From positions 192,001 through 256,000 of the forward strand of contig CBDCFN010000015.1 in the NCBI GenBank assembly GCA_965216315.1: a stretch of DNA of 64,000 nucleotides. Direction: 5' to 3'. Both the position numbers and the translations under genes were made by a program. Positions 2-25,201 of the stretch are shown one piece after another. The notes under the pieces were generated by a model. The model was given only the letters and a program-made list of their open reading frames with translations. It did not search any database and was not told the DNA's origin. Positions within the stretch are counted from its first letter, which is position 1, and every line of letters begins with the position of its first letter. The stretch is from a bacterium. GTDB taxonomy: Bacteria > UBA10199 > 2-02-FULL-50-16 > JAJFLM01.

Positions 2-1309
2 TTTCCGACGGCCAGCATCTCGGCGGCGCGCGACGTGCTGCAACATCAAGAAATTCAGGTCGTCCTCCTCGATGTCCGCCTCAAAGAAGAAAATGGCCTC
101 GATTTTCTCCCCGAAATTCTGGAACTCAATGACCAAATTGAAGTGATTGTCATCACCGTCATTTCGGATGTTCAGACAGCGGTCAGAGCGATGAAGAGTG
201 GGGCCTTCGACTACATTAACAAGGAATTCGACTACAATGAATTAACCACTATCATTGAACGGGCCTTAGACAAGCAAAAATCAACCAAAGAAATTCTCTA
301 TCTCCGTGATGAAGTCCGGCAACAAGAACCGGACGATTTTTATTTTGGCTCCAGCCCCCAAATGCTGAAAGCCCGTGAAATCGCCGATCGGGCGGCGCCA
401 CTCCCAACGACCGTACTCATCACCGGTGAGACTGGAACCGGCAAGGAACTGATGGCGCGCTACATCCACAATCAGAGTCACTTGGCCGATAAACCCTTCG
501 TTACTGTCAACCTTTCATCGATTCCATCGGAGCTGATGGAATCGATTCTCTTTGGACACGAAAAGGGTTCTTTCACCGGCGCCCACCAATTGCACTACGG
601 CAAGTTTGAACTCGCGAATGGAGGCACACTCTTTCTGGATGAAATCGGTGAACTGCGTTTTGAACTCCAATCGAAACTGTTGCGGGTCTTGCAAGAGAGC
701 GAGATCGAGCGGGTCGGCAGCAATAAAATGATTCCCATCCGGGTTCGTCTCATTGCAGCAACTAATGTGGATTTGCAGGAAAAGGTGCACGAAAGAAGTT
801 TTCGTGACGACCTCTATTATCGACTGAATGTCGTGCCTATCCATATGCCGCCGTTACGCGAACGTGTTGCCGATATCGGCAGACTCATCGAGATTTTCCT
901 GCAACGCTACAATCGAAAATTCAACCGACAGGTCAAGGCCTTGCAAGCCGACGTGATCGAAACGATCTCTAGCTATGATTGGCCGGGAAACATCCGTGAG
1001 CTGGAGAACCTCGTCGAACGGCTGGTCGCTATCTCCAATAAGGAAACCGTCGGTTTTGCCGATGTTCCCATCGAATACCAGCTCTGCAAGGTAGAAAACT
1101 CCGAGACCAAGGAAGGTGAAGAATTGCTCCAGAAAAGCCTTGACGCCTTTGAGCGAAGTTTCTTACTCCGAATACTAGAAGAGGAGTCATGGAACCAGAG
1201 CCAAGCCGCCAAGCGTCTGGGCATTCACCGCAAGACTCTTGAATATAAAATTAAGCGTCTCGAGTTGGGGGACATCATTCAAAACGAACGTACTCGTACT
1301 CACAATTAA
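2..1309 (+). CDS. Sigma54-dependent response regulator (NtrC family: REC, AAA+, HTH); 5' end runs off the window
   Basis: REC (VVLLDVRL), Walker A GETGTGKE, GSFTGA loop, LFLDEIGE, WPGNIRELEN, C-terminal HTH (NQSQAAKRLGIHRKTL). Frame is open back to position 2. Confidence 0.95.
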   Translation, partial: FPTASISAARDVLQHQEIQVVLLDVRLKEENGLDFLPEILELNDQIEVIVITVISDVQTAVRAMKSGAFDYINKEFDYNELTTIIERALDKQKSTKEILYLRDEVRQQEPDDFYFGSSPQMLKAREIADRAAPLPTTVLITGETGTGKELMARYIHNQSHLADKPFVTVNLSSIPSELMESILFGHEKGSFTGAHQLHYGKFELANGGTLFLDEIGELRFELQSKLLRVLQESEIERVGSNKMIPIRVRLIAATNVDLQEKVHERSFRDDLYYRLNVVPIHMPPLRERVADIGRLIEIFLQRYNRKFNRQVKALQADVIETISSYDWPGNIRELENLVERLVAISNKETVGFADVPIEYQLCKVENSETKEGEELLQKSLDAFERSFLLRILEEESWNQSQAAKRLGIHRKTLEYKIKRLELGDIIQNERTRTHN

Positions 1310-1314
1310 TTTTC

Positions 1315-3327
1315 ATGACAGCAAAGTTTATCCGCAACAGTAGCATCATCTATCTGATGCTCACAGCGGTTCCAAATCTCTACAGCGCCGAGGACGCAAC
1401 CACCGAGTTAACTCAGGTCGTTGTCACAGCGGACAAGCGTGAACAGGAACTCGGCGACACGCCGGCGTCCGTCACGATTATTTCCCGCGATGACATTGAG
1501 AGCCAAGCGGCTGACACGGTGCCTGAAGTCCTGCGCCATGTCGCCGGCGTCGATGTCGTCTCCATCGGAGCACCGGGTGACGATCTGGACATCCGCATGC
1601 GGGGTTCTGATCGAGATGAAGTGTTAATCATGATTGACGGCGTCGCCATCAACAACATCCGCGAGCATCGGGCCTTATTCTTAGGATCGATTCCTTTAGA
1701 TAATGTCGAGCGCATCGAAGTTGTCCGCGGATCCCAAAGCATACTCTACGGATCCGACGCTATCGGTGGTGTCATTAATATTATTACACGCAAGGGGACC
1801 GAAGAGCCTCAATACTTCGTGGGCTTTGAAGCGGGGACACTCCAGCGCTTTAAAGAAACGGCGGGACTCTCCGGGCATCCCGGCAAAAACCGCTATAGCC
1901 TAACTATCTCCCGCACCGACCAAAGAGGGCGCTTTGATCGCGATCGATTCGGTGAAATCGCCGCCTCAGCTAATTTTGGTCGTCAGCTCACTCCAGAAGT
2001 TGATCTTGAGGTGGGCGTCAACTACCTGCATACGAATCAAGACCTTTTTTATGAATTTCTAACCGGTTTTGACCCAGCGACAGGAAGTGTTCAGGTACGC
2101 ATTGATCCAGACCGTAATCGCGATCTCACCCGCGATCTCATCACGGGACGCCTCGCTTTGGAAGCCTACCCGCTACCCTGGTGGCAACTGCAATTTCACT
2201 ATGGTTTGTTCGTCGACAAGGACAGCGTCAGCAACCCCACAACCGGCGACACCGCGCCGACGGGCTTTGCGGTCGGGACGCAGGACTTTTCGGGCACGGG
2301 CTATTCCAATACGATCGACCTCCGCAATTTCTTTACACTCTATGAGTCCAGCCCAATCACCGCCGAACTCCTCGTCGGTTTTGAGTTTCAGGATGAACGT
2401 GTCAGTTTCACCGATCCGCCCCTCACTTTTCCAGGACCTGGTCAAGAAGGTGACCGTCAAAACATCGCGCCCTATGCCCAAATAAGTTTTCGCCTCTTAG
2501 ATGAAACTCTGTTCATCACCGGTGGCGCCCGTTTTGACCGGAATACCACCTTCGGACATGAACTAAGCCCCCGCGCTTCGATCCTCTACAAACTAGAAAA
2601 GACAGGGACTCGTTTTCGGGCGAGTTACTCCGAGGGGTTTCATGCCCCAACGATACTCGAGTTCTTCACCCAGACCTTATTGCGCGATTTAGGAGACCCT
2701 CAATTCCAAGCAATTCGTCTCCAAGAAGAACTCTCGCAGAGTTATGAGGTCGGCGTCGAGCAAGAGCTCTGGGATTGGGGCCAGATTTTCGCAACCTTCT
2801 TTTACGTTGATTATGATCGGCTCTTTGATGAATTGCAGTTTATTCAAGACGCCTTTGCAACCGGCGTCGAAACCGGATTTTCCATCCAACCCTGGGACTT
2901 TTTAGCTTTCGGCGGCAATTACACGCTACTCCATGCCCGCGATGAGACCAATAGCCGCCGCCTCCCCAATCGCCCACGGCACCATTTCAACACTTTTGTG
3001 CAAGGAACTCCGATTAGCGATCTGTCTCTCCGCCTTGATCTTAACTTCGTTAGCAGCCGGCGCGTGCCCGACACGATCAGCACTGCGGCAGGAGACCTCC
3101 CCTTTGTCTTCATCGACCAGAACGGCAACGCGACCAGCGGCACGGTAGGGAGCTACGTCAAACTCAACTTCGCCGCCGCCTATACCTTTCTCAAGGACTA
3201 CGGCCCTTTAAATAACTTAAGGACTTATTTACGCATCGATAATCTCCTGGATCGCAACTACCAAGAAAAATTCGGTTTCCCGGCGCCGGGCATCACCGTT
3301 CGCGGTGGGGCGACGGCGACATTTTAG
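1315..3327 (+). CDS. TonB-dependent receptor (plug + beta-barrel)
   Basis: Signal peptide, TonB box-like QVVVTA, plug motif ERIEVVRGSQSILYGSDAIGGVINIIT, DNLLDRNY, terminal Phe. Confidence 0.93.
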   Translation: MTAKFIRNSSIIYLMLTAVPNLYSAEDATTELTQVVVTADKREQELGDTPASVTIISRDDIESQAADTVPEVLRHVAGVDVVSIGAPGDDLDIRMRGSDRDEVLIMIDGVAINNIREHRALFLGSIPLDNVERIEVVRGSQSILYGSDAIGGVINIITRKGTEEPQYFVGFEAGTLQRFKETAGLSGHPGKNRYSLTISRTDQRGRFDRDRFGEIAASANFGRQLTPEVDLEVGVNYLHTNQDLFYEFLTGFDPATGSVQVRIDPDRNRDLTRDLITGRLALEAYPLPWWQLQFHYGLFVDKDSVSNPTTGDTAPTGFAVGTQDFSGTGYSNTIDLRNFFTLYESSPITAELLVGFEFQDERVSFTDPPLTFPGPGQEGDRQNIAPYAQISFRLLDETLFITGGARFDRNTTFGHELSPRASILYKLEKTGTRFRASYSEGFHAPTILEFFTQTLLRDLGDPQFQAIRLQEELSQSYEVGVEQELWDWGQIFATFFYVDYDRLFDELQFIQDAFATGVETGFSIQPWDFLAFGGNYTLLHARDETNSRRLPNRPRHHFNTFVQGTPISDLSLRLDLNFVSSRRVPDTISTAAGDLPFVFIDQNGNATSGTVGSYVKLNFAAAYTFLKDYGPLNNLRTYLRIDNLLDRNYQEKFGFPAPGITVRGGATATF

Positions 3328-3584
3328 CGCAAGCTGGCACGCAGATTGAGCCAACAACACGCTGTCTGGACCCCCCAAGACGACGTTTAAGCCCCCCAAC
3401 ACGGATAAATTTTATTGAAATTATGCCTAAAAATTTATCCAGTTTGCCGACAAAATACAGCGGCCTTGATCCCATTTCCCCGTAATTCTTCCGCCCCAAA
3501 GTCGTTAAATTTACACTATAATTTAGCAGGTTAGGCATCGCCCCCCTGAGCCGCTCTTATCCACATGGTGCAATTTTTCACCAG

Positions 3585-3600
3585 TGGCCCCGCGATTGCA
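3585..3600 (+). promoter_or_regulatory. Sigma54 -24/-12 promoter for the radical SAM gene
   Basis: TGGCCCCGCGATTGCA (GG-N10-GC), about 50 nt upstream of the likely start. Confidence 0.65.
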
Positions 3601-3649
3601 TCTATCGACAGCAGCAATTCACGAGTCACCAATCCGGGGGGAGAACGTG

Positions 3650-5041
3650 ATGAAGGGTTCAAGGTTTAATGTCCTGACCCGTGCTCAGGATGACCCGACT
3701 ACCTACTTGCTGTATAATACGCTTCACGATCATCGAATCCTCTTTGATGACCCAGAGTTAAATCCTCGTCGGCTCTTAGCCAAACTCAAAAAAAACGAGC
3801 CCCTCAACCCTAAAGAAACGGAAACAGCGGAAGTCCTTTATGAGATGGGCGTGTTAATCGACGATGACACTGATGAGAATAAGATTTTTAAAGAATGGTA
3901 CCTGGAAAAAATCCAAGAGCGCACGGACTACATGCAAATCACGATCCTACCCACCATGAAATGCAACTTGGCCTGCGATTACTGTTTTGAAAATGATGTC
4001 CGTGAATATGAACGACTAACGCCGGAACGCACCGAACAACTAATTCGCTTTCTCAAAGCACGCGTCAAAACCGTGCGCCCCAAAACTTTTCATATCACTT
4101 TTTTCGGAGGAGAGCCGCTAACCCATCCCGAAGCCGTAAAAGATATTTCCCGACAAATGTGGGAGTACTGTGAGAATTTTCCCGACGTCACAATGGAAAT
4201 CGGCATGATTACCAATGGGGTTTTCTTAACTCCGGAGTTTGTCGATGCGTTGCTGCCATACGGATTTGAATGGGTCAAGATCACTTTTGATGGAGATCGC
4301 GACGAACACGACAAAAAGCGCATCTGGCACAATGGGAGGGGAACTTTCGACACGATTTACGATAATCTTTCCCGGATCGCTGGTAAACTCAAGATAGCCA
4401 TCGGAGGCAATTTCGATCAGGCCAACTACGAGAGTATGTTCAGCCTGATCGAACGCCTCCGTAGCAGCCCTTTCGCCGACGACATATTTATTGCTCGTTT
4501 TAAGCCTATCATCGACGTTCAGCCGGACATCGCACTCAAGCGCGAAGGCGGACGCCTGACCGACGCTTGCAATGTTTGCACTTATAACAACGAGCAAATC
4601 AACCAGATGCAACGACTCCGGCAAAAAACTTTTGAAAGCGGCCTACCGATTGAAGACCGTCCGGTCGTGGGCCCCTGTGAATTTCATCAACACCACTCGA
4701 TGACAATTGGCCCCAATGGCCTGATCTACAAGTGTCCGGCTTTCGTGGGGCTACACAATCTAGCCGCCGGCGATATCTATCACGACGAATTCAACCAGTA
4801 CGGTGAATGGCAGCACACTTTTACTAAATGGGACTCAGAATGTGAAGAGTGCGCCTATTTACCCAACTGCGCCGGCGGCTGTCGCTTCAATGCAGTTAAC
4901 ACAACGGGAAGCTTAGAACCTAAATCTTGTGAACTCAATCTGCTTGTAAAATCCACCGAGAATTTCATGCAGAGGGAAATCGTAAAAATGCGTGCCGACG
5001 GCGAGAAAGAGGAGATCCTCCCCGTTTACTCGGCAGCTTAA
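3650..5041 (+). CDS. Radical SAM/SPASM domain protein, probable peptide maturase
   Basis: CNLACDYC (CxxxCxxC), FFGGEPL, ITNG, SPASM cysteines (GPCEF..YKCP..ECEECAYLPNCAGGC..KSC), ~100-aa N-terminal extension. Start placed at GTG/ATG 3647/3650 after a GGGGGGAG SD. Confidence 0.92.
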   Translation: MKGSRFNVLTRAQDDPTTYLLYNTLHDHRILFDDPELNPRRLLAKLKKNEPLNPKETETAEVLYEMGVLIDDDTDENKIFKEWYLEKIQERTDYMQITILPTMKCNLACDYCFENDVREYERLTPERTEQLIRFLKARVKTVRPKTFHITFFGGEPLTHPEAVKDISRQMWEYCENFPDVTMEIGMITNGVFLTPEFVDALLPYGFEWVKITFDGDRDEHDKKRIWHNGRGTFDTIYDNLSRIAGKLKIAIGGNFDQANYESMFSLIERLRSSPFADDIFIARFKPIIDVQPDIALKREGGRLTDACNVCTYNNEQINQMQRLRQKTFESGLPIEDRPVVGPCEFHQHHSMTIGPNGLIYKCPAFVGLHNLAAGDIYHDEFNQYGEWQHTFTKWDSECEECAYLPNCAGGCRFNAVNTTGSLEPKSCELNLLVKSTENFMQREIVKMRADGEKEEILPVYSAA

Positions 5042-5073
5042 CATTTCGACTAACGACTAATCCGGAGGTTTAA

Positions 5074-5142
5074 ATGAAAGTATCCAAAGGCAAAAAAGTA
5101 ACAGATCCCAAACCAGCAGTATGCGTACCTGTCGCATTCTGA
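5074..5142 (+). CDS. 22-aa putative RiPP precursor MKVSKGKKVTDPKPAVCVPVAF (not in the ORF track)
   Basis: GGAGG SD at 5064-5068; ATG 32 nt after the radical SAM stop; terminator follows immediately. Confidence 0.75.
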   Translation: MKVSKGKKVTDPKPAVCVPVAF

Positions 5143-5159
5143 CGCACGAATAGAACAAG

Positions 5160-5200
5160 AAAAAAGGGTCGCTCTGCCTGGCAGAGTAGATCCTTTTTTT
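5160..5200 (+). terminator. Intrinsic terminator after the peptide ORF
   Basis: AAAAAAGGGTCGCTCTGC-CTG-GCAGAGTAGATCCTTTTTTT hairpin with T tract. Confidence 0.8.
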
Positions 5201-5225
5201 CTTGTCGCGCTTTACATTAAGTGGC

Positions 5226-6827
5226 ATGGTCGCCTTCTTCATGCTGGCCCGGCCCGTCGCATTTGTTTCCATTATTCTTGTTTTCCTAGCGTTTATTTCC
5301 TGCACCCAACAAGCCACTCAACCTCAGCAAGGTGGGATTCTGCGCTTAGGCAGCTTTCATAAACCGACCGAGATCAATCCGCTCACCACTGACTCGAGCA
5401 TCTCGGCCAACCTATTAGACCTCATCTTTGACAGCCTGGTTCGATTGGATAGTGAACAAAACATTGAGGCCGAACTCGCTAAACGCTGGGAGGTCTCTCC
5501 GGATGGTCTCCAGTGGACCTTTTACTTGCGCCCGGACATCGTGTTTCATGATGGCACTGCACTAACAGCCGAGGATGTTAAATTTACCTATGATCATATT
5601 ATTAACAGTCATCGGGGTGCCTATACCGTCTATTTTCAGTTTGTTAAAGAGGTCCGTGTCCTCGATACGCATACGGTGCAAATCAGTTTATCTCAATTCG
5701 ACAACGTGTTGTGGACCGGATTGGCCTATGTGGGCATTGCCCCCAAACATTTACTCGCCAAACCCGCAGCAAGCGCCCAATTCAACCAACATCCTATCGG
5801 TAGCGGCGCCTACCGTTTTGTCCGCCGCACGCCTCAAGAAATTATTCTAGAGGCAAACCAAAACTATTACCAACAGCGCCCTTATCTCGATCGCATCGCC
5901 ATCGTCATCTTGCCAAGTCAGGGCGCCGTCTTGAATCATCTGATTGCCGAGCAACTTGATATGGCGTTTCTATTGAATCCAGAAGACTATGGCGCCCTCA
6001 ACCAAATCCCTTCCATTAAAATCTATAATAATTGGTATCCTTTTTTGTACCTCCTCACCCTCGACAACCGCAATCCACTCTTTCGCTCTACAACCAACCG
6101 TCGGCTGCTCAATCAGGCCATCAACAAAGAACAAATTATTCAACGCCTCCTCAAGGACCAAGGGGAGATTGCCGCCAGTACTGTCCCGAGTAAAAGCCCT
6201 TTTTATAATGCCGCAGTGACCCCTTACCCTCATGACCCAAAAGGAGTCGCAAAAATGTTGGCCAAAAGCGGCTGGAAAACCCACAACAAGGACCACATCC
6301 TGCGTAAAAACAATCGTTATTTTGAATTTACCGCTTATGCGATGGAAGGGCATAGTATGGAAGAAAGAATCTTACTTAATGTTCAAGAACAATTACTCCT
6401 CCTCGGCATCAAAATGAACATTACCGTTCTCCCCTTCGATCAATATATAAAGAAAATATTTCGCGAACAGCATTTCGATGCAAATTTGATTTTTTTCGTT
6501 TTTCGAGATTTTTACGGAAACAATTCTAATATATGGGATTCCCAGCAGATCAAAAAGGGCATCAACTATTTATCGTATGCAAACCCTGAAATTGACCGCC
6601 TCTTAAAAACAATTCGCTTAGCGCGTTCCAAGCCCGATCAAATCGCCGCACTCAAAGAATTCCAAAGAATCATCCACGACGACCCTCCCGGTATTTTTCT
6701 CTTTTGGCGCAACATGCCCATTGCCGTTCACAAACGCTTCCGCGGCATTCCTACAGAGCAGATGAAGTCTCTGCGCGATCTTGTGCATGTTTGGGTGCCG
6801 AAGGAGGAGCAGATTTCTAAAAATTGA
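5226..6827 (+). CDS. ABC transporter family-5 (OppA/DppA-like) substrate-binding lipoprotein
   Basis: Lipobox FISC; LAKRWEVSPDG..WTFYLRPDIVFHDG..LTAEDVKFT; PIGSGAY. Start could be 5226 or 5241. Confidence 0.92.
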   Translation: MVAFFMLARPVAFVSIILVFLAFISCTQQATQPQQGGILRLGSFHKPTEINPLTTDSSISANLLDLIFDSLVRLDSEQNIEAELAKRWEVSPDGLQWTFYLRPDIVFHDGTALTAEDVKFTYDHIINSHRGAYTVYFQFVKEVRVLDTHTVQISLSQFDNVLWTGLAYVGIAPKHLLAKPAASAQFNQHPIGSGAYRFVRRTPQEIILEANQNYYQQRPYLDRIAIVILPSQGAVLNHLIAEQLDMAFLLNPEDYGALNQIPSIKIYNNWYPFLYLLTLDNRNPLFRSTTNRRLLNQAINKEQIIQRLLKDQGEIAASTVPSKSPFYNAAVTPYPHDPKGVAKMLAKSGWKTHNKDHILRKNNRYFEFTAYAMEGHSMEERILLNVQEQLLLLGIKMNITVLPFDQYIKKIFREQHFDANLIFFVFRDFYGNNSNIWDSQQIKKGINYLSYANPEIDRLLKTIRLARSKPDQIAALKEFQRIIHDDPPGIFLFWRNMPIAVHKRFRGIPTEQMKSLRDLVHVWVPKEEQISKN

Positions 6828-6872
6828 ATCCCCCTTAATCCCCCTTTACAAAGGGAGGCTAGTAGGGATTTA
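6827..6872. repeat. Repeat family R1, collapsed copy
   Basis: AATCCCCCTTAATCCCCCTTTACAAAGGGAGGCTAGTAGGGATTTA matches both ends of the copies at 37888 and 63065. Confidence 0.75.
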
Positions 6873-6955
6873 GGCGAAAATAAATAGTTTCCAGATAGTC
6901 GAATCTTGCCTAGCAATATTTGAAGTAGCTTTTTTCATGATTTGTAAAGTTGGAG

Positions 6956-7156
6956 CTACTCTTTGTTACCTTCATGGGAGAACGTTGCCAAACTAGTATC
7001 ATTACTATCGTCTGTCGATGAAATGCTTATATCAGCACTAGATAATACAGGCGTTAAAACTGCGCCTTCTTTAACCTTACTTGCAATTTTCCGTACAGCT
7101 TCAATTAAATCTTCAGACCAACCAAGCTTTTCTAATTGTTTATCAAGCTCCATCAT
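6956..7156 (-). CDS. Small hypothetical protein (66 aa)
   Basis: ORF 15 nt downstream of the SDH protease, same strand, same AT-rich composition. Confidence 0.55.
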   Translation of the reverse strand: MMELDKQLEKLGWSEDLIEAVRKIASKVKEGAVLTPVLSSADISISSTDDSNDTSLATFSHEGNKE

Positions 7157-7171
7157 TTTATTGTATAATGC

Positions 7172-8209
7172 CTATATCTGATTTGCACTACGTATTAAAG
7201 AATATTTTTGAGACAGAAACATCTTTACTATCATAGATTTATCAAAAGTATAATAAATTAATGCCCAGAACCTACGAATAGCACGCTGTAGCCCTGGTAC
7301 AGACTCTATCTCGTGGATTTTAAGCTTCAACTCCTCACTAATAGCAACATCTCTTGTAATTCCATGCGCGTGTGATTTCCAATATTCGTTACTGCATAAT
7401 TTATCAGCGATCCATTTTGCACGAGAATACTTCTCTTCTTCCGTGACAGTGTTATTTGTACTAGAATGCTTAGTCCAGTTCTTGAATTTATATTGATTCA
7501 AAAAAGAAGTTGCCATTTTTATCGAATATTCAGATAGGCTTATAGCATCACCTATCTGTCGTTGATCCATTGTATCTACCAGCCTGATGTAGTGCCATGG
7601 AGGGTTGTTGCCTTTCTTCAGTGCTTCCTCGCCATCCTGTTTAATTTTATTAAGTAGTACTAATATAGATTGTGCAGGCACAAGATTGCCATCTTTAGAC
7701 CTTACTTGCGGGTCTATCGGACCTATATACGCTCGCTTATCCATCCAAATATCATCCCCAGATAATGCCCATAACGTGCCCGCACTCATGCATGCATGAG
7801 GAAGAATGAAATTAACGATTTCAAAACGTGGCCTAAGGCAGTTAACAAATTGTGAAACTTGCTGCCCCGAACCACCACCTGTAGCTAGTAAGATGTCAAG
7901 ATCGGTTTGCTGATCATCTATACTACTAACTAATTCATTGAAAGGAAGATCATCGCTAAGATCAATAGACGTATTCGGCAATGGTTTTATGACGTTCGCG
8001 AGATAGCACACAGCTGGGCGCTCTCGAATTTTTTCAACTTCCGCAAGAGCTTTCCTTATATCAGGGATAACGTTTCCACTGCGGGGGACGAATGACACAA
8101 TACTTCCATATTCATTTCCATCCTCCATCTTATCCAATAATGAATCAACCTCCTTTGTTTCTTGCGTTTTCTGACGCCCCCGGGCAATTTGCCGGCTTTT
8201 CCTTCCCAT
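7172..8209 (-). CDS. SDH-family ClpP/crotonase-fold serine protease
   Basis: LATGGGS, CMSAGTLWAL (catalytic Ser), IGPIDPQ (Asp), KSHAHGI (His). Confidence 0.85.
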   Translation of the reverse strand: MGRKSRQIARGRQKTQETKEVDSLLDKMEDGNEYGSIVSFVPRSGNVIPDIRKALAEVEKIRERPAVCYLANVIKPLPNTSIDLSDDLPFNELVSSIDDQQTDLDILLATGGGSGQQVSQFVNCLRPRFEIVNFILPHACMSAGTLWALSGDDIWMDKRAYIGPIDPQVRSKDGNLVPAQSILVLLNKIKQDGEEALKKGNNPPWHYIRLVDTMDQRQIGDAISLSEYSIKMATSFLNQYKFKNWTKHSSTNNTVTEEEKYSRAKWIADKLCSNEYWKSHAHGITRDVAISEELKLKIHEIESVPGLQRAIRRFWALIYYTFDKSMIVKMFLSQKYSLIRSANQI

Positions 8210-8277
8210 TTTAAGTATCTTTCATAGCTTTCGTCTCTTCATTAATAGTGAAAAATAGAATTTCTCTGGCAATTGCT

Positions 8278-9570
8278 CTACTTGATCAAACTACAGCCAC
8301 CTGCTGAACTCGAACTCCCACTGCTGATATCCTCTGCAATTTCCCCATCATATTCATCTGCGCCCATATCCGGCACATCCCAAATGACTCGATCATCTCC
8401 ATCAAAATCAGTCTCGAGCATTTGAGGGGCATCATCGTAACCAGTATTTATACAAGGAGATGAGGCCTGAAGATGAAAATCACCATTTTCCGCATCGACA
8501 AAGAGTGGGTCGGCACTGATGCTATCAAATTCTTCTTTCTGAACACTGCATTCAAAACAACTAGCTTTCAATTTTCCATAATTATTATTAAATAAGCGAA
8601 TCAATCCCCCTTTGCCATCATTATTAAAATCAATACCAGAATCAAAATGAATGTCATTGATAGCTTTCCCTAATGGAGTCAAGTTATTCACAATAATGTT
8701 ACTATATAATTCTGCCTGAGCCTCATCTGTTCGTAGCCGCAACAATAAACCACTCCATGTGCCTTCTTCATCTAACGAGAAATTATTTGAAATAGTATTG
8801 TTCACAAGAATTGTATCAGCGCCATCAACCGTATCTGTCACATCTGTTATGGTAAGTGCACCACTACTATTTCTCTCAAAAATATTGCCACTTACAACAA
8901 CATATTCTGCTTCAATATTTGCTCCTCCGCCGGTACCAACATTTAATGAATTATTACTAAATAGATTATTTTCCAGTACGACTGAATCTGCTGTTCCATT
9001 TGATATATTTAGGCCTCCATTAGTATCACTTTCATTATAAATAAAGCGACTATTTCTAACTAAAATAGTGGATGAGCTATTGGAAATTATTAGACCACCG
9101 GCATTAGTATCAAATGAACTAGATTCAATCTTTATATTGACTTTAAATGGCTCAATATTGACTCCACTGAGGTTAGAAGGTTTTCCGTTAGAAAAACTTA
9201 TACCTTCAATAGAAATATTACCCCGGATATTAATTAAATCTAAAATTCCTAACCCACCGCTCATATTTGAACCGTCAATAATTGTGTTGTCTATCCCTTT
9301 TCCGATTAGACTCAGAGAAAAAGACTCTGACTCTAATGGATCGTAAATAAAATTACCTCCCGAGGAATTCTTATTATAAGTCCCAGATTCTAAATAAAGA
9401 TTGTCGTCTTGATTATTTATGCCTGCTAGATTTAGAGCGGCTTGTAAATCACATATCAAATCTGAACAATCGCTATCTTGATCTAAGCTAACAGAAATAT
9501 CAGCAGCATTAGTTTCAACTGACATTAAAAAAATAACGGCGTAGATTACTGCCCATGCTATTTTGTTCAT
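8278..9570 (-). CDS. Secreted parallel beta-helix protein with choice-of-anchor-Q-like end and short GGCSLIK tail
   Basis: Signal peptide, Asn-rich beta-helix repeats, DPLFVD..GDFHLQASSPCINTG..DMGADE. Confidence 0.75.
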   Translation of the reverse strand: MNKIAWAVIYAVIFLMSVETNAADISVSLDQDSDCSDLICDLQAALNLAGINNQDDNLYLESGTYNKNSSGGNFIYDPLESESFSLSLIGKGIDNTIIDGSNMSGGLGILDLINIRGNISIEGISFSNGKPSNLSGVNIEPFKVNIKIESSSFDTNAGGLIISNSSSTILVRNSRFIYNESDTNGGLNISNGTADSVVLENNLFSNNSLNVGTGGGANIEAEYVVVSGNIFERNSSGALTITDVTDTVDGADTILVNNTISNNFSLDEEGTWSGLLLRLRTDEAQAELYSNIIVNNLTPLGKAINDIHFDSGIDFNNDGKGGLIRLFNNNYGKLKASCFECSVQKEEFDSISADPLFVDAENGDFHLQASSPCINTGYDDAPQMLETDFDGDDRVIWDVPDMGADEYDGEIAEDISSGSSSSAGGCSLIK

Positions 9571-9590
9571 TAGATTCCCAGTTTCTATTT

Positions 9591-10691
9591 TTATCGCGTT
9601 CCTATGGCTATTATTGTAGCTTGATTAGGTAATTTGCCATCTGATCCATCACTACAGCGACTGTCTGCACATATGTTCAATCTGAAAGTTCCATCGATGA
9701 AAACAGTAACCCTTTCCGTGCCACCCCCGTCGCCTTCATATTGACTCAAAGAAGGTACAAATGTCACAGCTGATCCACAGTCTGAAACACCGAATCCACT
9801 AGGTATATATATTAAAGAGCAAACGTTTGTTCCGTGCACAACATTTTGGCTAACTCTGAATCCAATCCCCGAATACCCAGCCCCTTTAATCGATCCATCC
9901 GAATTAAGTGCTGAATTTGAATCATTAAGATCAACTCCATCTACAAAACCAACATTTGTGATGTTATTGCCTCCCATGCTTAGATTGCCACTCATAGTGT
10001 CGCCACCAACGTTGACATAGGCTGAATCATGATTATGACCTGCGGTTGCAGCTCCTACCTGGGCTGCGGTGACGTTGTGCGGATTGGACGTATCACTTGT
10101 ATGACTACTTAGTTCTGTATCCATAGTAACTTCAGGAGGTAATTGAGTCACATCCAGCACACCCGTCAGTTGAGAAATACTAATATTCTCCAAATGCTCG
10201 ACCGTAATCGCGCCATTCTCAATACTAGTCGCGGTAATAGCCCCCTCTGCCACGGTTAATGCCTGTTGGGCATAAAAGGCATATGGCACCGAGGTCAGCT
10301 CTAATTGATCTAACGTAGTGACATTCTTAACCGTGACTTCGAGAAAAAGCGGGTTCGCCGGATTAAAATCAGTAAATATCAGCCCCCCCGTTGGAACGGC
10401 AGGATTGGAATTCGGGACAATACCGGAACCCAGGAGCACATTGATCATTCCATCAAAAATTTGCACCGCGGGCTGTTCTTCGGCATAGAGTTCCGTTCCC
10501 TGATCATCGAGGATACGAAACAGAATATCAGCACTATCATCTTCGATGACATTCCCGCCATCATCGAAAATAACCGACTGAAAGGTAATCACATTAGGGA
10601 CCGACTGGGCCTGCCCTATAACTGACACCAGCATCACTGCTAATATCAGAATAGATCCAAATAATTTTCTCTGTATTTTATACAGGCCCAT
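9591..10691 (-). CDS. Secreted tail-fibre-like adhesin
   Basis: Signal peptide; QSVPNVITFQ..LFLEVTV..LTSVPYAFYA N-domain; fibre-type repeats HTSDTSNPHNVTAAQVG, HNHDSAYVN, GDTMSGNLSMGGNNITNV. Confidence 0.65.
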   Translation of the reverse strand: MGLYKIQRKLFGSILILAVMLVSVIGQAQSVPNVITFQSVIFDDGGNVIEDDSADILFRILDDQGTELYAEEQPAVQIFDGMINVLLGSGIVPNSNPAVPTGGLIFTDFNPANPLFLEVTVKNVTTLDQLELTSVPYAFYAQQALTVAEGAITATSIENGAITVEHLENISISQLTGVLDVTQLPPEVTMDTELSSHTSDTSNPHNVTAAQVGAATAGHNHDSAYVNVGGDTMSGNLSMGGNNITNVGFVDGVDLNDSNSALNSDGSIKGAGYSGIGFRVSQNVVHGTNVCSLIYIPSGFGVSDCGSAVTFVPSLSQYEGDGGGTERVTVFIDGTFRLNICADSRCSDGSDGKLPNQATIIAIGTR

Positions 10692-10715
10692 ACGTTACCT
10701 CGCTTTCATTCATAA

Positions 10716-11150
10716 TTACCTTATCTTAATTTCGACCCGCCGATTCCGTGATCGGCCGCTTTCATGGCTATTACTCGCCACTGGCTTTTCTTCCCCAAAT
10801 GACAAAACAATCAGCTGTTCCGGTGCAACCCCCGCTAAAACTAAAAGTTCTTTAATAGTACGCGCACGTTTATCGCCTAAACGTAAATTGTATGCCGAAT
10901 CTCCAATCGCATCGGCATGACCCTCAAGTTGGGCAATCCAACTCGGATGCCGACGAAGATAATCTACTGTCGGACTCAGTTTGCGACGCTCTTCTGATTG
11001 GAGATTCGATTGGTCGGAAGCAAAATACAAAGATGTGAGATCACGTGGTTTTTGGACAATGGGTTCGGGAGCCTTGCGATGAGATGAAGCACAAGCAGAC
11101 ATCATCATGATCAATCCCAATCCAAAGAGTGAAAGGGCCTTAGCGTTCAT
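10716..11150 (-). CDS. Pal/OmpA-family peptidoglycan-binding lipoprotein
   Basis: Lipobox SAC; LEGHADAIG..YNLRLGDKRA; SFGEEKPV; NRRVEI. Confidence 0.9.
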   Translation of the reverse strand: MNAKALSLFGLGLIMMMSACASSHRKAPEPIVQKPRDLTSLYFASDQSNLQSEERRKLSPTVDYLRRHPSWIAQLEGHADAIGDSAYNLRLGDKRARTIKELLVLAGVAPEQLIVLSFGEEKPVASNSHESGRSRNRRVEIKIR

Positions 11151-12016
11151 TGCACACTCCTTTGCATCACACCCGGGAAATGGGCTAAATCCACATCAAA
11201 GCTATGGACTGGCACACCACCCGCGCTTACATGTGATGCCTCAATCCCCCCAAACGAAACGATCCCGATACCGGGCAAAGAACCCGGAGGGATCAAGCGA
11301 ACACTAACCTGACTTTGTTCGCCGTTATCTAAATCGCGAACCGTAAATGTATGCCGCCCCAGCGCGAGCGTATCTGGCGCCATTGTGAAGGTACCAAGGC
11401 TTATTGACGGTGAAATAACTGAATCTCCCAAGGAAACATCTAAGAGTACGTCGCTACTGCCCTCGGTGGCATCATCGATCTCAAGACGTCCCCCCGGCTC
11501 ACCGACACCGAGTAATTTAAGACGGTTTACGATAACGCGATTACCCGAACGCAAGTTCGTAAATAGTGGGACTGTGTTGAGCGACACAACGATGGGTTCG
11601 GCATTGTCTTTATCAATCGTAACATTCATGATCTGCTTGCGCCGAACCACCATTCCTTCTGAATTGAAGGCCTCGACCAAGAAAGTCCGTGCGGTACCAT
11701 CCGGAAGTTCATTAAGTTCCGTCCCGGTTGAATCAGCATCAAGATTAATGACCACGGGTTCTGCTAAATCCTCACCCGTCACGGTAACGACAAAGCGCAC
11801 GACACGTTGAATTTCGGGTAATTGCTCGACAGATAATCCAGCCGGACTGAGCGCATTTTCAATAATGAGATCGATGTTGACGTTTTCGTGGCGCGTGCAT
11901 GCAGTGCTAAGAAGAAGCAACACAGTCAATAAAATCCCCCTCAATCCCCCTTTGCAAAGGGGGAGGTGCCGGTGGTCCAAAATTACGCCCTTCTCTTTAT
12001 CAACGAAAAATGACAT
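11147..12016 (-). CDS. Hypothetical lipoprotein (Ig-like)
   Basis: LLLLLSTAC lipobox; beta-rich. Start uncertain (ATG 12016 overlaps the upstream gene end). Confidence 0.7.
   Translation of the reverse strand: MSFFVDKEKGVILDHRHLPLCKGGLRGILLTVLLLLSTACTRHENVNIDLIIENALSPAGLSVEQLPEIQRVVRFVVTVTGEDLAEPVVINLDADSTGTELNELPDGTARTFLVEAFNSEGMVVRRKQIMNVTIDKDNAEPIVVSLNTVPLFTNLRSGNRVIVNRLKLLGVGEPGGRLEIDDATEGSSDVLLDVSLGDSVISPSISLGTFTMAPDTLALGRHTFTVRDLDNGEQSQVSVRLIPPGSLPGIGIVSFGGIEASHVSAGGVPVHSFDVDLAHFPGVMQRSVQ
11931..11965. repeat. Repeat family R1 half copy, at or inside the lipoprotein 5' end
   Basis: AAAATCCCCCTCAATCCCCCTTTGCAAAGGGGGAG; translates as PLCKGGLRGIL. Confidence 0.75.
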
Positions 12017-13307
12017 TGATCGCTCCTGTCGTATTGGTTCCCGTAGCCACCATCGCTCCTGCCGTCGCTCCACCCGCCAACGCTCCCATCCCGACCCAGA
12101 ACCAAGGATTTTTAAGTAAAGAGCGGCTCTTTCCAATCAAAACAACGTCGCCATAATAAGGGGCCGCCGCTAAGCCCGCCGGATCATCCATAATGGTCTG
12201 ATCCATCTCAGCTAGGACCTGAGTTGCCAGAGTCGCGGATACTTGAGCCGACTGACGTTGAACTCTTTTGGTTGTTGCCTCTACAGGACGATGAAAGGTC
12301 GAAAGGCTTTCATCAATGATATGCGCACGCACGATGTCATTGCCTTTTTCGCGCCGCAGATCGACCAAGATCAGCTTACGCACGCGCATTGACTGTGCCG
12401 CTGCTGAGGCTGTTCCGATCAATTCTTCCAAATCATCAAACTGATCTCGATGAAAACCAACCATGTCCTTGGGATAACGGTTATTCTTCCCTTTCCAACC
12501 AAGCTTCAGTTTGACTTGTTCGGTTTGACCCGCCGTAACTGACACGGTTTCGCTTTTAGAGGTATAATTTGCCGCCTTGACCGTAACAACATGCTCACCG
12601 ACGGGGTAATTCCCAAGCTTTAAGGGCGCGGCTCCCTTATAAATCCCATTTATGTAAACATCCGCCGCCGATGGTTGAGAGCGAACTTCAATGTGCCCCG
12701 ATGGCTGTTCCTTAAGCTCACGTTTGGCCCGCTCAATGCGCTTAATGACGGATGGGGCAAAATACTTTTCATCTAATTCGACGTACGGATCATAACGAAC
12801 TAACTTACGAAAAGACTCGGTCGCATCTCGTTTGCGATGTTGGGCCAACAAGACAATTCCCTGAACGGTATAAGCTTCCTGCAGTGAACGATAATCACGT
12901 GTGAGTTGACTCGTTTGCAGACAGTTCTCGATGGCTTCATCTGTCAGCCGTTTTGCTTTGGCTAACTGCAATGCGAAATAGGCCTTCTTCGCATCGGCCA
13001 CCATTCCATGGATTGGGCTCACCTGACCCGCCTCTAAGACGGCTGACTTCTTATAATCGAGAATCGCCTTACTTTCTTCTCGAGATAGGATTTTAAGGTG
13101 ACGATATCGCGATAGTTCCTCGCGAAAACGATCGGTAATTTTGCGGGTATAGTCTGGTCGCGTCCCGCGTTGATGCAGTTCAACGACCGCTATATATTCA
13201 GGTTCATTGGCAGCTACCGTGGCCGGCACCTGTAAAATCATTGCGGCACTTAACAAAATGCTCAGCAACTTTCGAACTCGGGTTTGACGAACCTCCCTGT
13301 TGCCCAT
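12000..13307 (-). CDS. PEGA domain protein with signal peptide, TPR-like helices and C-terminal hydrophobic segment
   Basis: GHIEVRSQPSAADVYINGIYKGAAP..GEHVVTVKAANY (PEGA); C-terminal WFWVGMGALAGG. Confidence 0.85.
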   Translation of the reverse strand: MGNREVRQTRVRKLLSILLSAAMILQVPATVAANEPEYIAVVELHQRGTRPDYTRKITDRFREELSRYRHLKILSREESKAILDYKKSAVLEAGQVSPIHGMVADAKKAYFALQLAKAKRLTDEAIENCLQTSQLTRDYRSLQEAYTVQGIVLLAQHRKRDATESFRKLVRYDPYVELDEKYFAPSVIKRIERAKRELKEQPSGHIEVRSQPSAADVYINGIYKGAAPLKLGNYPVGEHVVTVKAANYTSKSETVSVTAGQTEQVKLKLGWKGKNNRYPKDMVGFHRDQFDDLEELIGTASAAAQSMRVRKLILVDLRREKGNDIVRAHIIDESLSTFHRPVEATTKRVQRQSAQVSATLATQVLAEMDQTIMDDPAGLAAAPYYGDVVLIGKSRSLLKNPWFWVGMGALAGGATAGAMVATGTNTTGAINVIFR

Positions 13308-13410
13308 TCCCCATCCCTTTCTACCGCACCCGAACTTGCCTAACATTTAATCAGCCCCCAACCCCCTGTAAACGGAAAATATTTATCCAACTCGCCACCC
13401 CAAGTTATAT

Positions 13411-13426
13411 TGCAGTCTTCGTGCCA
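13411..13426 (-). promoter_or_regulatory. Sigma54 promoter for the PEGA operon
   Basis: Minus strand TGGCACGAAGACTGCA (GG-N10-GC). Confidence 0.75.
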
Positions 13427-13524
13427 GACTGGGCGACAGATACAAATGAATAGGAATACGTTGGTATTATTGAGGATTTATTACGTCGGGCCCGAACCAG
13501 CTGATACTCATCAGGTGACGACAA

Positions 13525-13560
13525 GTTTCATTTTGAGACGGTGGGGTTTCAATTAGGTCC
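13525..13560. promoter_or_regulatory. Paired putative enhancer-binding-protein sites
   Basis: GTTTCATTTTGAGAC and GTTTCAATTAGGTCC, 21 nt apart, ~100 nt upstream of the 13426 promoter. Confidence 0.6.
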
Positions 13561-13954
13561 GTGCTTTGAGCGCCTCGATCTCTCGGTCGTGATAGGTCAG
13601 CTGCTCCGCGAGGCCATCAAATTTGCTGTCCAAACGATCAACTTTATTATCTAAACACCCAACTTTTCGGTCTAAATGCTCAACTTTATTATCCAAACAC
13701 TCAACTTTTTCTTCAAGGCTCCCAATTCTTTGCGCATTGGCTTCAATCGCCTCGCCATTCGCTGCAATGGCCCGGCTGTTATGCCGTACGGCAAGATTGA
13801 GTACTTCTATCTTTTCATCTAAGCGATTATAGCGCACATCCACCTCTTTCAGGATATCGGTCTTAAACTGTTCCTGACGCTCAATAACAAGCTGAAGCTG
13901 AGATTGCATATGTTCCAGCAGAATAAGTTGTCTCGAATCATGCGTATCTGACAT
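13553..13954 (-). CDS. Small coiled-coil protein with heptad repeats
   Basis: GGAGG SD; LEEKVEC/LDNKVEH/LDRKVGC/LDNKVDR/LDSKFDG repeats. Confidence 0.8.
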   Translation of the reverse strand: MSDTHDSRQLILLEHMQSQLQLVIERQEQFKTDILKEVDVRYNRLDEKIEVLNLAVRHNSRAIAANGEAIEANAQRIGSLEEKVECLDNKVEHLDRKVGCLDNKVDRLDSKFDGLAEQLTYHDREIEALKART

Positions 13955-14045
13955 AAGGTTCCTCCGATAACAAAGTCTTCATGACGAATAAAGACTGATT
14001 TCTAACCATTGAAATCTACAAACAAAGTTTATCGGGAAGAATTCT

Positions 14046-14061
14046 TGCAGAATCGATGCCA
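14046..14061 (-). promoter_or_regulatory. Sigma54 promoter for the coiled-coil gene
   Basis: Minus strand TGGCATCGATTCTGCA. Confidence 0.7.
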
Positions 14062-14134
14062 GTTAAATCTGCCCCTTAACTACATAAAACTCATCACTTT
14101 TTAGAGCTGCTAAATCATTGATCATTCAGGCAGG

Positions 14135-14170
14135 GTTTTATGTTGAGACGGTCGAGTTTCAATTAAATAC
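14135..14170. promoter_or_regulatory. Paired putative enhancer-binding-protein sites
   Basis: GTTTTATGTTGAGAC and GTTTCAATTAAATAC, 21 nt apart. Confidence 0.55.
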
Positions 14171-14331
14171 CCCTTAGATAACGGTCCCAAATAGAGTCCC
14201 TCCCCTGCGTAAAGCGAGGCTTGGAGGGAAGTTGCCGCCAATTTCCCCCACAATTTCAACGCCCTAGCGCCGGGGCCCAAAATCGACAAAATCCGCAACA
14301 ATTTCAGGCACATGCCGAAGATTGCCTGGAT

Positions 14332-17300: not shown

Positions 17301-18721
17301 CGGCACTTCATCATATTGAAAAAGCGATTCCGCTTGTTAGCACGCCTGATCTTGCTAGACGACGCATGAAAGCTATCGGAAGTAAGGCCGGAATACTCAT
17401 CAACTTAGGGAAATATGACGAAGCGTTGGAATTATACTTAGAAACTGAAAAACTATCTAAAGAACGATTCAAATCCGATTCACTCGCCGAGATTCTATCA
17501 AATTTAGCAATGACTGCGTATCGCTTACATGATCCTCGCGCTAAAGAATTTATGCTACGAGCAAGTGAATTATATATGAAACAGCCGGTAAGATTTTTTA
17601 CGGGTGTTAACTATTTGTATGCTTCTTTAATATACATGGCCGAAGGCAATTTAGATAAAGCACATCAAGCAGCTAACGATTCACTAGGTGTGGCATACAA
17701 ATACGGCAATAATGATAAACTCGCGTCCATGGCATATATGGCAAGAGCGCAGGTATACTTGAGAATGGGAAATTATGCTGATGCACTCGAAGATAGCACA
17801 AAAGCCTATCAGATATTGAAAAAATACAACATGGCGATAGAGGAGTATGACTTGGAGATCATGCTGACACACAGCCGCGTTCTTCATGCCAATGGTCAAG
17901 TTGATGATGGCTGGCATGTTATTGATGCTACAAAAAAAGAACTCAACGAGAGAGCAAAGAAGCTCAGTGACGAAGATCTAAAAGACAGTTTCTTGAACAA
18001 CGTTGAGGTAAACCAAACTATCATACAGTGGTGGGAAACCCTCCGACGAGCATCATCGGCCGATGATCAGGGAGCTTTTGAACGCATCATTGCGCCACAC
18101 CTTCCTTTTCATGTACCCACTGAATTGCCACCGGATATGGCGCGCTACGCCAATCAAGATCCCGGTCGCGTCAGTGGGGATAGTAAATACAACGGCGGAG
18201 CAATTGCGGGTGTGATCTTGAATATCCCTATTGTCGACGCCGTCCGGGGCGTCATGGAAGAGGACATAGAAGAAATCCCCGAAAACCTCGGGAAGCCGGG
18301 CTCGCTCTGGTATGATTACTTATCCGCCCAGGGAATCAGTTGGAAAACGATGAAGCAGGATGGCAAGCCCGCCGCGCTGGTTACCTTTAAACTCGGCCAC
18401 CGCAAGAGAATCGTCGGCCCCGTGCTCAAGGCCATCGAAGCACTTGGTTTTGCGACGAATTATGAGATCAAGCTTGTCGATGACCTGGAGAAGGACGGTG
18501 AAGTCCTGCGCATGACCATGAAAGTCGATCCGGACGAGAGCAACGTCAGTCCCTCGCAGTTCGGCCCGCTTGAATTCAGTTTTGCGATGCTAGGACCAAA
18601 CCGTAGCCTTATCACACTCCATATGAAAGACACAGACTTTACCCAGCATCCCCGGGTGGTCCTACTCGCCTTTGCTAGAATACTACTGCGAAAGGCTAAC
18701 GAATCCCCTCAATCTGAGTAG
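14332..18721 (+). CDS. Zn ribbon, class III nucleotide cyclase, STAND-type AAA ATPase and TPR protein
   Basis: CAVC..FCKDCG; IFGDLSGFS, WGDAIFAVFG, RLGINTG, VNIAARLE; Walker A GGAGMGKS; Walker B LLLEDLHW; GGSPF; FYHAMLRDAVY; TPR-like repeats. Start uncertain; the ATG of MPKIAW reads at 14332 in the sequence. Confidence 0.88.
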
Positions 18722-19124: not shown

Positions 19125-19180
19125 TTTAACACTCCCCCGAGTATTTAGTGACTAATCGTTAGTTTACGCCTGCAATTCGA

Positions 19181-19196
19181 TGCAATGGGGATGCCA
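19181..19196 (-). promoter_or_regulatory. Sigma54 promoter for the 19124 gene
   Basis: Minus strand TGGCATCCCCATTGCA. Confidence 0.7.
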
Positions 19197-19518: not shown

Positions 19519-19543
19519 TTGGCACGCTTGCAAGACGTGCCAA
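19519..19543. terminator. Inverted repeat, probable terminator for the 1530-aa gene
   Basis: TTGGCACG-CTTGCAAGA-CGTGCCAA, 15 nt past the stop at 19559. Confidence 0.5.
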
Positions 19544-19558
19544 CAATGAGCGTTGGTC

Positions 19559-25164: not shown

Positions 25165-25201
25165 GTGTAACCGCCTCCGGAGACTATCCGGATTTCATGC
25201 A

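Follow-up and report, generated by a model that had tools for sequence, protein, structure and literature searches.

Features of the locus

We analysed a stretch of 64,000 nucleotides of the bacterial contig CBDCFN010000015.1 (hereafter the window, meaning the whole stretch) for a gene pair close to its left end, in which the gene for a radical S-adenosylmethionine (SAM) enzyme with a SPASM domain is followed by an open reading frame (ORF) of 22 codons. A preliminary description, made from the letters of this region, had proposed the pair as maturase and precursor of a new ribosomally synthesised peptide with post-translational modifications (RiPP), read from a sigma54 promoter. We consider it very probable that the two genes are a real precursor-maturase pair under sigma54 control. 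The features on which this judgement is built are listed below by their positions in the window.

3403 to 3440, no strand assigned: perfect inverted repeat GGATAAATTTT-N16-AAAATTTATCC, with 11-nt arms that are 100% complementary, ∼150-180 nt upstream of the sigma54 box
3585 to 3600, plus strand: sigma54 -24/-12 promoter element TGGCCCCGCGATTGCA, matching 10 of the 11 defined positions of TGGCAC-N5-TTGCW
3650 to 5041, plus strand: radical SAM/SPASM peptide maturase of 463 amino acids, assigned by family models, cysteine motifs, AlphaFold2, Foldseek and phmmer
5063 to 5067, plus strand: Shine-Dalgarno (SD) sequence GGAGG of the precursor gene, read from the sequence, with an SD-like motif also in homologous ORFs
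5074 to 5142, plus strand: precursor peptide gene of 22 amino acids, MKVSKGKKVTDPKPAVCVPVAF, whose leader is basic and whose invariant Cys17 has five residues after it
5156 to 5205, plus strand: hairpin resembling an intrinsic terminator, with a T-run; stem at 5171-5187

Conservation of the precursor peptide gene

The precursor ORF begins with the ATG at 5074, 32 nt after the enzyme stop at 5041, and stops at 5142, so the unannotated, GGAGG-preceded ORF of the preliminary description is indeed present. Since the first 10 kb of the window hold 149 ORFs of at least 20 amino acids, a 22-codon ORF is unremarkable by itself, and we regard it as a gene because 24 of 26 loci have it conserved next to the enzyme gene. 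These loci were defined by homologues of the enzyme (34-59% identity, E up to 1e-40), which occur in 26 of the 93 genomes of the phylum, the window's genome counted; three of the homologues are also present in named metagenome-assembled genome records. An ORF of the same family starts 12-161 nt 3' of the enzyme gene at 24 loci, and at the other two the contig ends 55-75 nt past the enzyme gene. One locus carries three tandem copies, which brings the number of ORF copies to 26, and all 26 have an ATG start and an SD-like motif. Both cysteine codons are used among them (TGC 19 times, TGT 7 times), and of the codon differences, 345 of 872 are synonymous in the group of 22-residue peptides and 505 of 1703 in the 25-residue group. 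These sequence comparisons show the predicted 22-residue peptide to be the product of a real, conserved gene paired with the radical SAM/SPASM enzyme; a search for a conserved short ORF beside homologues of the enzyme had been proposed in the preliminary description, and it turned up one with an invariant Cys. The locus with tandem copies (L002 4399-4713, the same as L010 2899-3210) encodes two variants of the peptide that are one residue apart, each copy having its own SD-like motif.

When the 24 distinct peptides were aligned, Met1 and one Cys were the only invariant residues, with Gly6 and Lys8 reaching 90%. Basic and strand-prone, the N-terminal half is a leader of the form MK-I/V-x-(V-V)-KKG-x-K and the core is hydrophobic or aromatic across the alignment, in agreement with the basic leader-like half and the hydrophobic core with one Cys that had been noted for the window peptide. 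Exactly five residues follow the Cys in all 24 peptides, making it the sixth residue from the C-terminus; its distance from the N-terminus differs between the groups. The five residues consist of a variable position, a small or turn-forming residue (P/G/A/S) and three hydrophobic or aromatic residues ending in F/Y/W/H/M/L. The window peptide itself has one Cys, with neither Asp nor Glu after it.

This peptide family is unannotated. The Pfam and NCBIfam models gave no match to the peptide, and the 24 peptides hit no NCBIfam family at E up to 10, which accords with the earlier remark that the peptide was not recognised as belonging to a known precursor family. An exact look-up of 10 of the peptides in ∼15 billion predicted proteins found none of them.

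The radical SAM/SPASM enzyme

The reading frame of the enzyme is open from 3584, and its ATG at 3650 is preceded by GGGGGGAG. We took this ATG as the real start because the homologues align from residue 1 and because an ORF starting at the GTG at 3584 would overlap the promoter. The radical SAM motif CX3CX2C (C105/C109/C112) is invariant in 64 homologues, as are the SPASM cysteines C343-x13-G-x4-C362, C398-x2-C401-x5-C407-x3-C411 and C427, and at least 90% of them also have C307. The corresponding models scored above their cut-offs, with 67 bits for Pfam Radical_SAM (cut-off 29.5) and 52.3 bits for the SPASM model TIGR04085 (cut-off 27). An AlphaFold2 model of the enzyme (predicted local distance difference test, pLDDT, 91.7; predicted template modelling score 0.89) has an N-terminal domain, a barrel core and a SPASM domain. 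Residues 1-90 were modelled as three strands and three helices (beta3-alpha3) with pLDDT above 95, gave no PqqD-type Pfam match at E up to 0.01, and on the strength of the model are predicted to form a domain like the RiPP recognition element (RRE). These features give the modelled enzyme the three-domain build of thioether-forming maturases, and the preliminary description of a radical SAM/SPASM gene with an N-terminal extension was correct.

The best structural match found by Foldseek was CteB (5why/5wgg), with E ∼1e-18, a template modelling score of 0.65-0.71 and 16-18% identity over alignments of 472-489 columns. It was followed by SuiB, TigE, ChlB and anSME, PqqE being also among the structural matches, and CteB was the best hit of phmmer against the PDB as well (E 2.2e-14). 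Scoring the enzyme against SPASM maturase models, as the preliminary description had recommended, identified the geopeptide maturase model TIGR04280 as the best, aligned end to end with 249.7 bits and below its cut-off of 400. The CefB, TIGR04463, FlmE/OhkG and PapB families came next, every one of them under its cut-off. TIGR04280 was likewise the top model for 64 of 64 aligned homologues, none of which was near 400 bits (best E 2.6e-82), and no member of TIGR04280 over the cut-off was detected in 14 control genomes. The nearest characterised NCBIfam families (PapB, SCIFF/CteB-type and QhpD) are mostly Cys-thioether formers. The public names carried by 399 homologues (E up to 1e-30) were limited to 'radical SAM protein', 'SPASM domain-containing protein' and 'uncharacterized'. 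Judged by its model scores, the enzyme group is a sister group outside every curated family.

Promoter, upstream repeats and terminator

A relaxed form of the sigma54 pattern has three matches in the window compared with 1.16 expected, and 12 of 100 shuffles reach three. The box at 3585-3600 is therefore not beyond chance when taken alone, and it owes its significance to its conservation across loci: 25 of the 26 loci have, upstream of the enzyme gene and mostly 29-90 nt before the start codon, a box with a score of 9 of 11 or better, which only 5.5% of random 350-nt windows attain. The window's genome encodes rpoN (208 bits). The sequence thereby holds every feature of a putative sigma54 operon, namely the box at correct spacing, rpoN and the adjacent gene of an AAA+ activator at 2-1309.

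Half-sites of the type GGATAA/TTATCC are present at -300 to -100 in 23 of the 26 loci, two or more of them in 15. The background for such half-sites is 13% of 200-nt windows, and composition-matched shuffles gave 2.9 loci on average and at most 9. In the window, the inverted repeat at 3403-3440 stands in the place expected for an enhancer-binding protein and is a candidate upstream activating sequence for the response regulator; a similar inverted repeat lies upstream of the regulator gene. We also tried GGATAAATTT as a regulon marker within the window and rejected it, as its nine matches (up to one mismatch) against 6.8 expected were not significant. A second sigma54-like box, TGGCATCCCCATTGCA, was observed on the minus strand at 19181-19196, directly upstream of a 142-amino-acid ORF of no Pfam family (18696-19124, minus strand), and GGATAAACTT lies 17 nt beyond this box (region 19181-19222). 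This ORF may likewise be controlled through sigma54, perhaps by the same regulator.

Downstream of the pair, the 75 nt after the peptide stop fold at -30.8 kcal/mol (RNAfold, z = -5.0), and at 20 of 24 loci the peptide ORF likewise has a comparable hairpin behind it, with z below -2. The promoter and terminator elements show the enzyme and peptide genes to be a predicted sigma54-dependent unit closed by a terminator. Both elements had been pointed out before, and both were recovered here, the box with its conservation across loci and the hairpin with its T-run. What had been called a closed two-gene unit holds as a single predicted transcription unit, but this unit is embedded in a larger conserved cassette that includes a regulator, a TonB receptor, a binding protein and a kinase.

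The surrounding cassette

The further genes of the cassette are located in the window as follows.

2 to 1309, plus strand: sigma54-dependent response regulator of NtrC type (Pfam Sigma54_activat 9.8e-69, Response_reg, HTH_8)
1315 to 3327, plus strand: TonB-dependent outer-membrane receptor of 670 amino acids (Pfam Plug 1e-28, residues 47-153)
5202 to 6827, plus strand: family-5 solute-binding lipoprotein (Pfam SBP_bac_5 2.5e-73; lipobox ...FISC; probable start ATG 5226)
26316 to 28064, plus strand: dCache-HAMP histidine kinase (37% identity, E 3.8e-117, to the cassette kinase of locus L035)

The regulator consists of a receiver domain, an AAA+ sigma54-interaction domain and a Fis-type helix-turn-helix; its first ∼36 codons precede the window, with a probable GTG start at L032 9892. 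The receptor gene begins 5 nt after the regulator gene, and its product is without an N-terminal signalling extension and has as best NCBIfam match the BtuB-type model TIGR01779 (203 bits, far under the cut-off of 600). No ATP-binding cassette (ABC) permease genes adjoin the gene for the binding lipoprotein, whose lipobox Cys is kept in at least 90% of 12 orthologues and whose best NCBIfam matches (NikA, Opp4A, Opp5A_nikA and CntA) are all far below their cut-offs. Elsewhere in the same genome, 6-10 kb upstream of the window start (L032 806-4212), we observed a second family-5 binding protein gene together with two ABC permease genes, and these might provide the orphan binding protein with its missing inner-membrane step.

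For the wider gene context we used 12 loci, made up of the window, nine loci and two further loci. The binding protein gene directly follows the peptide gene in all 12, a TonB receptor gene stands beside the enzyme-peptide pair in 10 and a sigma54 regulator gene in eight; a dCache-HAMP kinase gene closes the cassette in eight and is found elsewhere in the genome in the other four. Among the 93 genomes, enzyme and kinase occur together in 24, the enzyme by itself in two (in both, a contig end truncates the locus), the kinase by itself in two and neither in 65, counts that overstate independence as the genomes are related. From this arrangement we conclude that the enzyme-peptide unit is embedded in a conserved cassette of genes for a predicted regulator, TonB receptor, family-5 binding lipoprotein and dCache kinase.

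The kinase of the window at 26316-28064 is, by sequence similarity, orthologous to the kinase with which the cassette ends in relatives, and is displaced ∼19 kb downstream; the next best match to the L035 cassette kinase in the window's genome has an E value of 1e-25. The only other genome of the same family with the enzyme (G025, locus L055) has the kinase gene directly after the binding protein gene. Because the kinase is adjacent in this nearest relative with the cassette, the ∼19 kb between binding protein and kinase suggest an insertion or rearrangement. The interval (6828-26315) contains genes unrelated to the cassette, encoding a ClpP-like SDH protease, DUF5123, OmpA and PEGA proteins, a 1469-residue adenylate cyclase-AAA-TPR protein and a 1530-residue Ig-repeat protein.

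Some relatives have additional genes in or beside the cassette. A major facilitator superfamily (MFS) gene lies between the binding protein and kinase genes, on the opposite strand, in two families (L034 11175-12458, minus strand; L040 5991-7193, plus strand), and the MFS homologue of the window's genome is only 32% identical and located elsewhere. One family has the cassette splitting an ABC ATPase gene from a UPF0014 permease gene, and two genomes that have the kinase but not the enzyme carry kinase, ATPase and permease genes as one operon (for both arrangements together: L035 3730-4629 and 13677-14336, L039, L041, L037, L053 and L054); we take this permease to be FetB-like. No UPF0014 gene was found in the window's genome (98% complete). 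A FetAB-like ABC pair as a general exporter of the peptide was ruled out, as the window's genome is without UPF0014; the split pair is confined to some families.

A sister clade and the chemistry of the ring

To extend the comparison beyond the phylum's close homologues we scanned metagenome contigs with profiles, using generic radical SAM patterns and keeping the best 80 loci. The scan revealed a sister clade of enzymes 32-36% identical to the window enzyme, each with a short ORF 9-37 nt downstream. The sister peptides have the same leader and a single Cys, and end in F-C-x4-D followed by 6-9 more residues. A joint alignment of 27 sequences again had the Cys as the sole invariant residue besides Met1. 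The column at Cys+5 is Asp in all nine sister peptides and the C-terminal residue in all peptides of the window clade, so that a carboxylate, from the Asp side chain in one clade and from the C-terminal residue in the other, stands at the same offset in both. The sister cassette comprises regulator, enzyme, peptide, binding protein and a dCache domain, with no TonB receptor between them; of five sister loci scanned, four have the regulator directly upstream and three the binding protein downstream.

More distant metagenome loci (L072 2326, L076 187 and L092 2352; enzymes 26-29% identical) have ORFs of 30-31 amino acids that lie upstream of the enzyme gene; their leader is similar, and a Cys-Cys pair stands towards their end. 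By their sequences these ORFs are a different precursor type of the same enzyme superfamily. A 34-residue ORF at L070 3903-4004, which ends in C-P-T-L-V-F and has its Cys in the sixth position from the end, comes after an enzyme of 30% identity. We did not count this locus as a member, as the ORF overlaps one of 209 amino acids in another frame, a STAND NTPase gene lies upstream and there is no binding protein.

Since the sister-clade Asp sits where the window clade has its C-terminal residue, the alignment suggests a thioether from Cys to the residue at Cys+5, next to a carboxylate. That the enzyme makes a Cys thioether of some kind is in our judgement probable; that the acceptor is the C-terminal residue we propose tentatively, with slightly less than even confidence. 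For the window peptide we infer a putative Cys17-Phe22 thioether that would close a six-residue ring. The preliminary description had likewise entertained a crosslink involving the C-terminal Phe, and the fixed five-residue spacing from the Cys, together with the sister-clade Asp, gives this idea indirect backing. A precedent comes from PapB, which according to a 2025 study (PMC12373016) also links Cys in vitro to a C-terminal residue with a free carboxylate, the side chain deciding between C-alpha and C-beta as the point of attachment. If our proposal is true, the window system would be a natural counterpart of the C-terminal thioether macrocyclisation now obtained from the in-vitro promiscuity of PapB.

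Proposed mechanism and alternative explanations

On balance we favour the view that the cassette is a RiPP system of an undescribed family, whose ring peptide is released, re-imported and sensed. The RRE-like N-terminal domain of the enzyme would bind the basic, strand-prone leader MK-I/V-x-KKG-x-K. The enzyme would then abstract hydrogen from the carbon next to the carboxylate on the residue at Cys+5 and join this carbon to the Cys sulfur, the acceptor being the C-terminal Phe (at C-alpha or C-beta) in the window clade and the Asp side chain in the sister clade. The product would have a six-residue thioether ring, be 2 Da lighter than the precursor, leave the cell and act outside the cytoplasm. 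As a peptide of ∼2.3 kDa is too large for porins, re-entry would be TonB-dependent, with the receptor of the cassette carrying the product across the outer membrane, back to the periplasm, where the family-5 lipoprotein would capture it. The dCache kinase may then sense the product and signal to the response regulator, which would bind the GGATAA repeats and activate the sigma54 promoter, closing a self-sensing loop. Re-uptake and sensing of the cell's own peptide is a part of this scheme on which our judgement falls a little short of evenly balanced. The full picture of a quorum-like circuit in diderm bacteria, with a six-residue thioether ring ending on the C-terminal residue that is re-imported, read by the kinase and switches its operon on, we regard as rather unlikely as a whole. 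A prediction of a complex between the binding protein (residues 35-541) and the periplasmic dCache domain of the kinase (33-277), made from separate alignments, scored 0.02 against a mark of 0.32, which counts neither for nor against the scheme.

Several observations weigh against this scheme, in addition to the relatedness of the genomes mentioned above. Its chemistry is inferred from relatives and residue spacing, and the NCBIfam families nearest to the enzyme (geopeptide, CefB, TIGR04463) are in their turn all uncharacterised. In PMC12373016, cross-linking at the C-terminus by PapB is reported for D- or beta-amino-acid termini, which limits the precedent because a ribosomal peptide ends in an L-residue. 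Across the 12 wide loci neither an exporter nor a leader protease is conserved in the cassette, and the MFS gene, a possible exporter, is present in two of them only. The kinase gene is not adjacent in the window's genome. The two genomes with the kinase but not the enzyme have its gene in the operon with those for the ABC ATPase and the UPF0014 permease, and for this reason the kinase may sense something other than the peptide. Finally, the best family matches of the binding protein are nickel- or metallophore-binding proteins, which fits another explanation.

This explanation, metallophore-like scavenging, is the main functional rival. The modified peptide would bind a metal or a scarce solute and be recovered via the TonB receptor and the binding protein, while the two-component system would sense supply. 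The genes for the receptor and the orphan family-5 binding protein adjoin the RiPP pair, as such a function would have it, and the binding protein is closest to NikA, Opp5A_nikA and the staphylopine-metal binder CntA, although the NikA- and CntA-type scores are far under their cut-offs. The ABC ATPase and UPF0014 permease that flank the cassette in some families and accompany the kinase in the two enzyme-free operons can be read in the same way, as can the second family-5 binding protein and two permeases upstream (L032); the window's genome, however, is without UPF0014. Against scavenging speaks the peptide, in which the single Cys is the one conserved metal ligand and would be consumed by a thioether, and His, Asp and Glu are not conserved in the hydrophobic and aromatic core. 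General Pfam scans of the neighbourhoods found no MbnB/MbnC-type genes, those models not having been run by name. We judge scavenging unlikely. A bacteriocin-like antimicrobial RiPP directed at competitors, with the receptor, binding protein and two-component system unrelated or serving immunity or regulation only, appears to us decidedly less probable still. Many radical SAM-modified peptides, such as the sactipeptides and darobactin, are antibiotics, and the operon is tightly regulated; on the other hand, immunity genes, dedicated exporters and leader proteases are not conserved, it would be unusual for a producer to maintain importer and periplasmic binder genes beside that of its own toxin at 10-12 of 12 loci, and the cassette is present in a single copy per genome with a distribution within families that looks vertical.

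Two further alternatives concern the pair itself. The same enzyme and peptide might be joined by other chemistry, such as a C-C or C-O cross-link to the aromatic tail, an anSME-like action on the Cys, epimerisation or C-terminal decarboxylation. All these reactions are known from SPASM enzymes of this fold, with SuiB, anSME and PqqE among the structural matches, and cyclophane formers of the DynA, YhhB and FxsB type are among the weaker family matches. Mycofactocin MftC decarboxylates a C-terminal residue, and the peptide tail is rich in aromatic residues. However, aromatic positions vary across the family (F/Y/W/H/M/L/V), the Cys being the sole invariant residue besides Met1, the characterised relatives that score highest are thioether formers, and the sister-clade Asp at Cys+5 fits a carboxylate-directed thioether, so we rate other chemistry as fairly unlikely. 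It could also be supposed that the short ORF is untranslated and that the conserved stretch is a regulatory RNA or terminator region only, given that the ORF is absent from all gene calls, that none of the 10 peptides was found in the collection of 15 billion proteins and that a look-up of sequencing runs listed no RNA run containing the locus. It is nevertheless the amino-acid sequence that is conserved, with codons varying synonymously and the Cys encoded by both TGC and TGT; all 26 copies have the ATG and an SD-like motif, the frame is kept at 34-59% enzyme identity, and the hairpin lies after the ORF and not inside it. We hold this last alternative to be extremely improbable.

Novelty and significance

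Searches of full text in Creative Commons-licensed PMC articles and bioRxiv, with few subscription journals, returned no description of the peptide family or the cassette, and in the same full text no papers on 'geopeptide' or 'TIGR04280' were found; PMC8939145 deals with graspetides and has no bearing on the system. Radical SAM-modified peptides are already known as a kind; what is new is the precursor family, and its uptake-and-sensing context is unusual and conserved. New here are a single-Cys family with fixed C-terminal spacing, its conserved promoter and upstream motif, and the argument from the carboxylate offset. Model libraries and gene calls alike are without this family, which illustrates what gene callers miss. 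The coupling seen in the cassette points towards signalling by peptides, or uptake mediated by them, in uncultured diderm bacteria, in which peptide autoinducers are, to our knowledge, barely known.

Comparison with known systems

Among solved proteins, CteB, the SCIFF thioether maturase of thermocellin (5WGG, 5WHY), is the best match to the window enzyme in both sequence and structure. The two share a radical SAM core and a SPASM domain with two auxiliary clusters, and the RRE of CteB would have its counterpart in the N-terminal domain modelled for the window enzyme. They are nevertheless 16-18% identical, the SCIFF model TIGR03974 gives the window enzyme 89.3 bits (cut-off 425), and SCIFF precursors have six Cys whereas the window peptide has one. 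The geopeptide family (TIGR04280) supplies the best-scoring maturase model for the window enzyme and for all 64 homologues; here too the score of 249.7 bits falls short of the cut-off of 400, the family has the status of a 'hypothetical equivalog', and the 24 peptides match no NCBIfam precursor model.

PapB, the ranthipeptide maturase of freyrasin (NF047865), likewise belongs to the radical SAM/SPASM enzymes; it links the sulfur of Cys to the carbon beside a carboxylate a few residues downstream, as is proposed here for the window system, and the sister clade has a C-x4-D motif. The differences are considerable. The window enzyme scores 128.3 bits on NF047865 (cut-off 340), and PapA has six CX3D repeats, whereas the window precursor has 22 amino acids, one Cys, no Asp after the Cys and an offset of +5. 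Unlike that of freyrasin, the context of the window pair includes a TonB receptor, a binding protein, a two-component system and sigma54.

Methanobactin offers a likeness in gene content, since this RiPP operon also encodes a TonB receptor (MbnT) and a family-5 binding protein (MbnE) for its own product. In contrast, no MbnB or MbnC was among the Pfam matches of the window neighbourhood and nine wide loci, a result of general scans in which these models were not run by name, the window peptide appears to be without evident metal-binding chemistry, and the predicted regulation is by a two-component system and sigma54. Staphylococcal Agr autoinducing peptides are short ribosomal products, with a Cys at fixed distance from the C-terminus, a small C-terminal ring and a hydrophobic tail, and are sensed by a histidine kinase that switches on their own operon; their ring is a thiolactone made by a protease. 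The system described here differs from Agr in having no AgrB or AgrC homologues, in its radical enzyme and in its outer membrane, TonB receptor and binding protein. The two have in common a short peptide with a Cys at fixed C-terminal distance, a likeness that we use as a working analogy for a peptide that may be read by the kinase of its own cassette.

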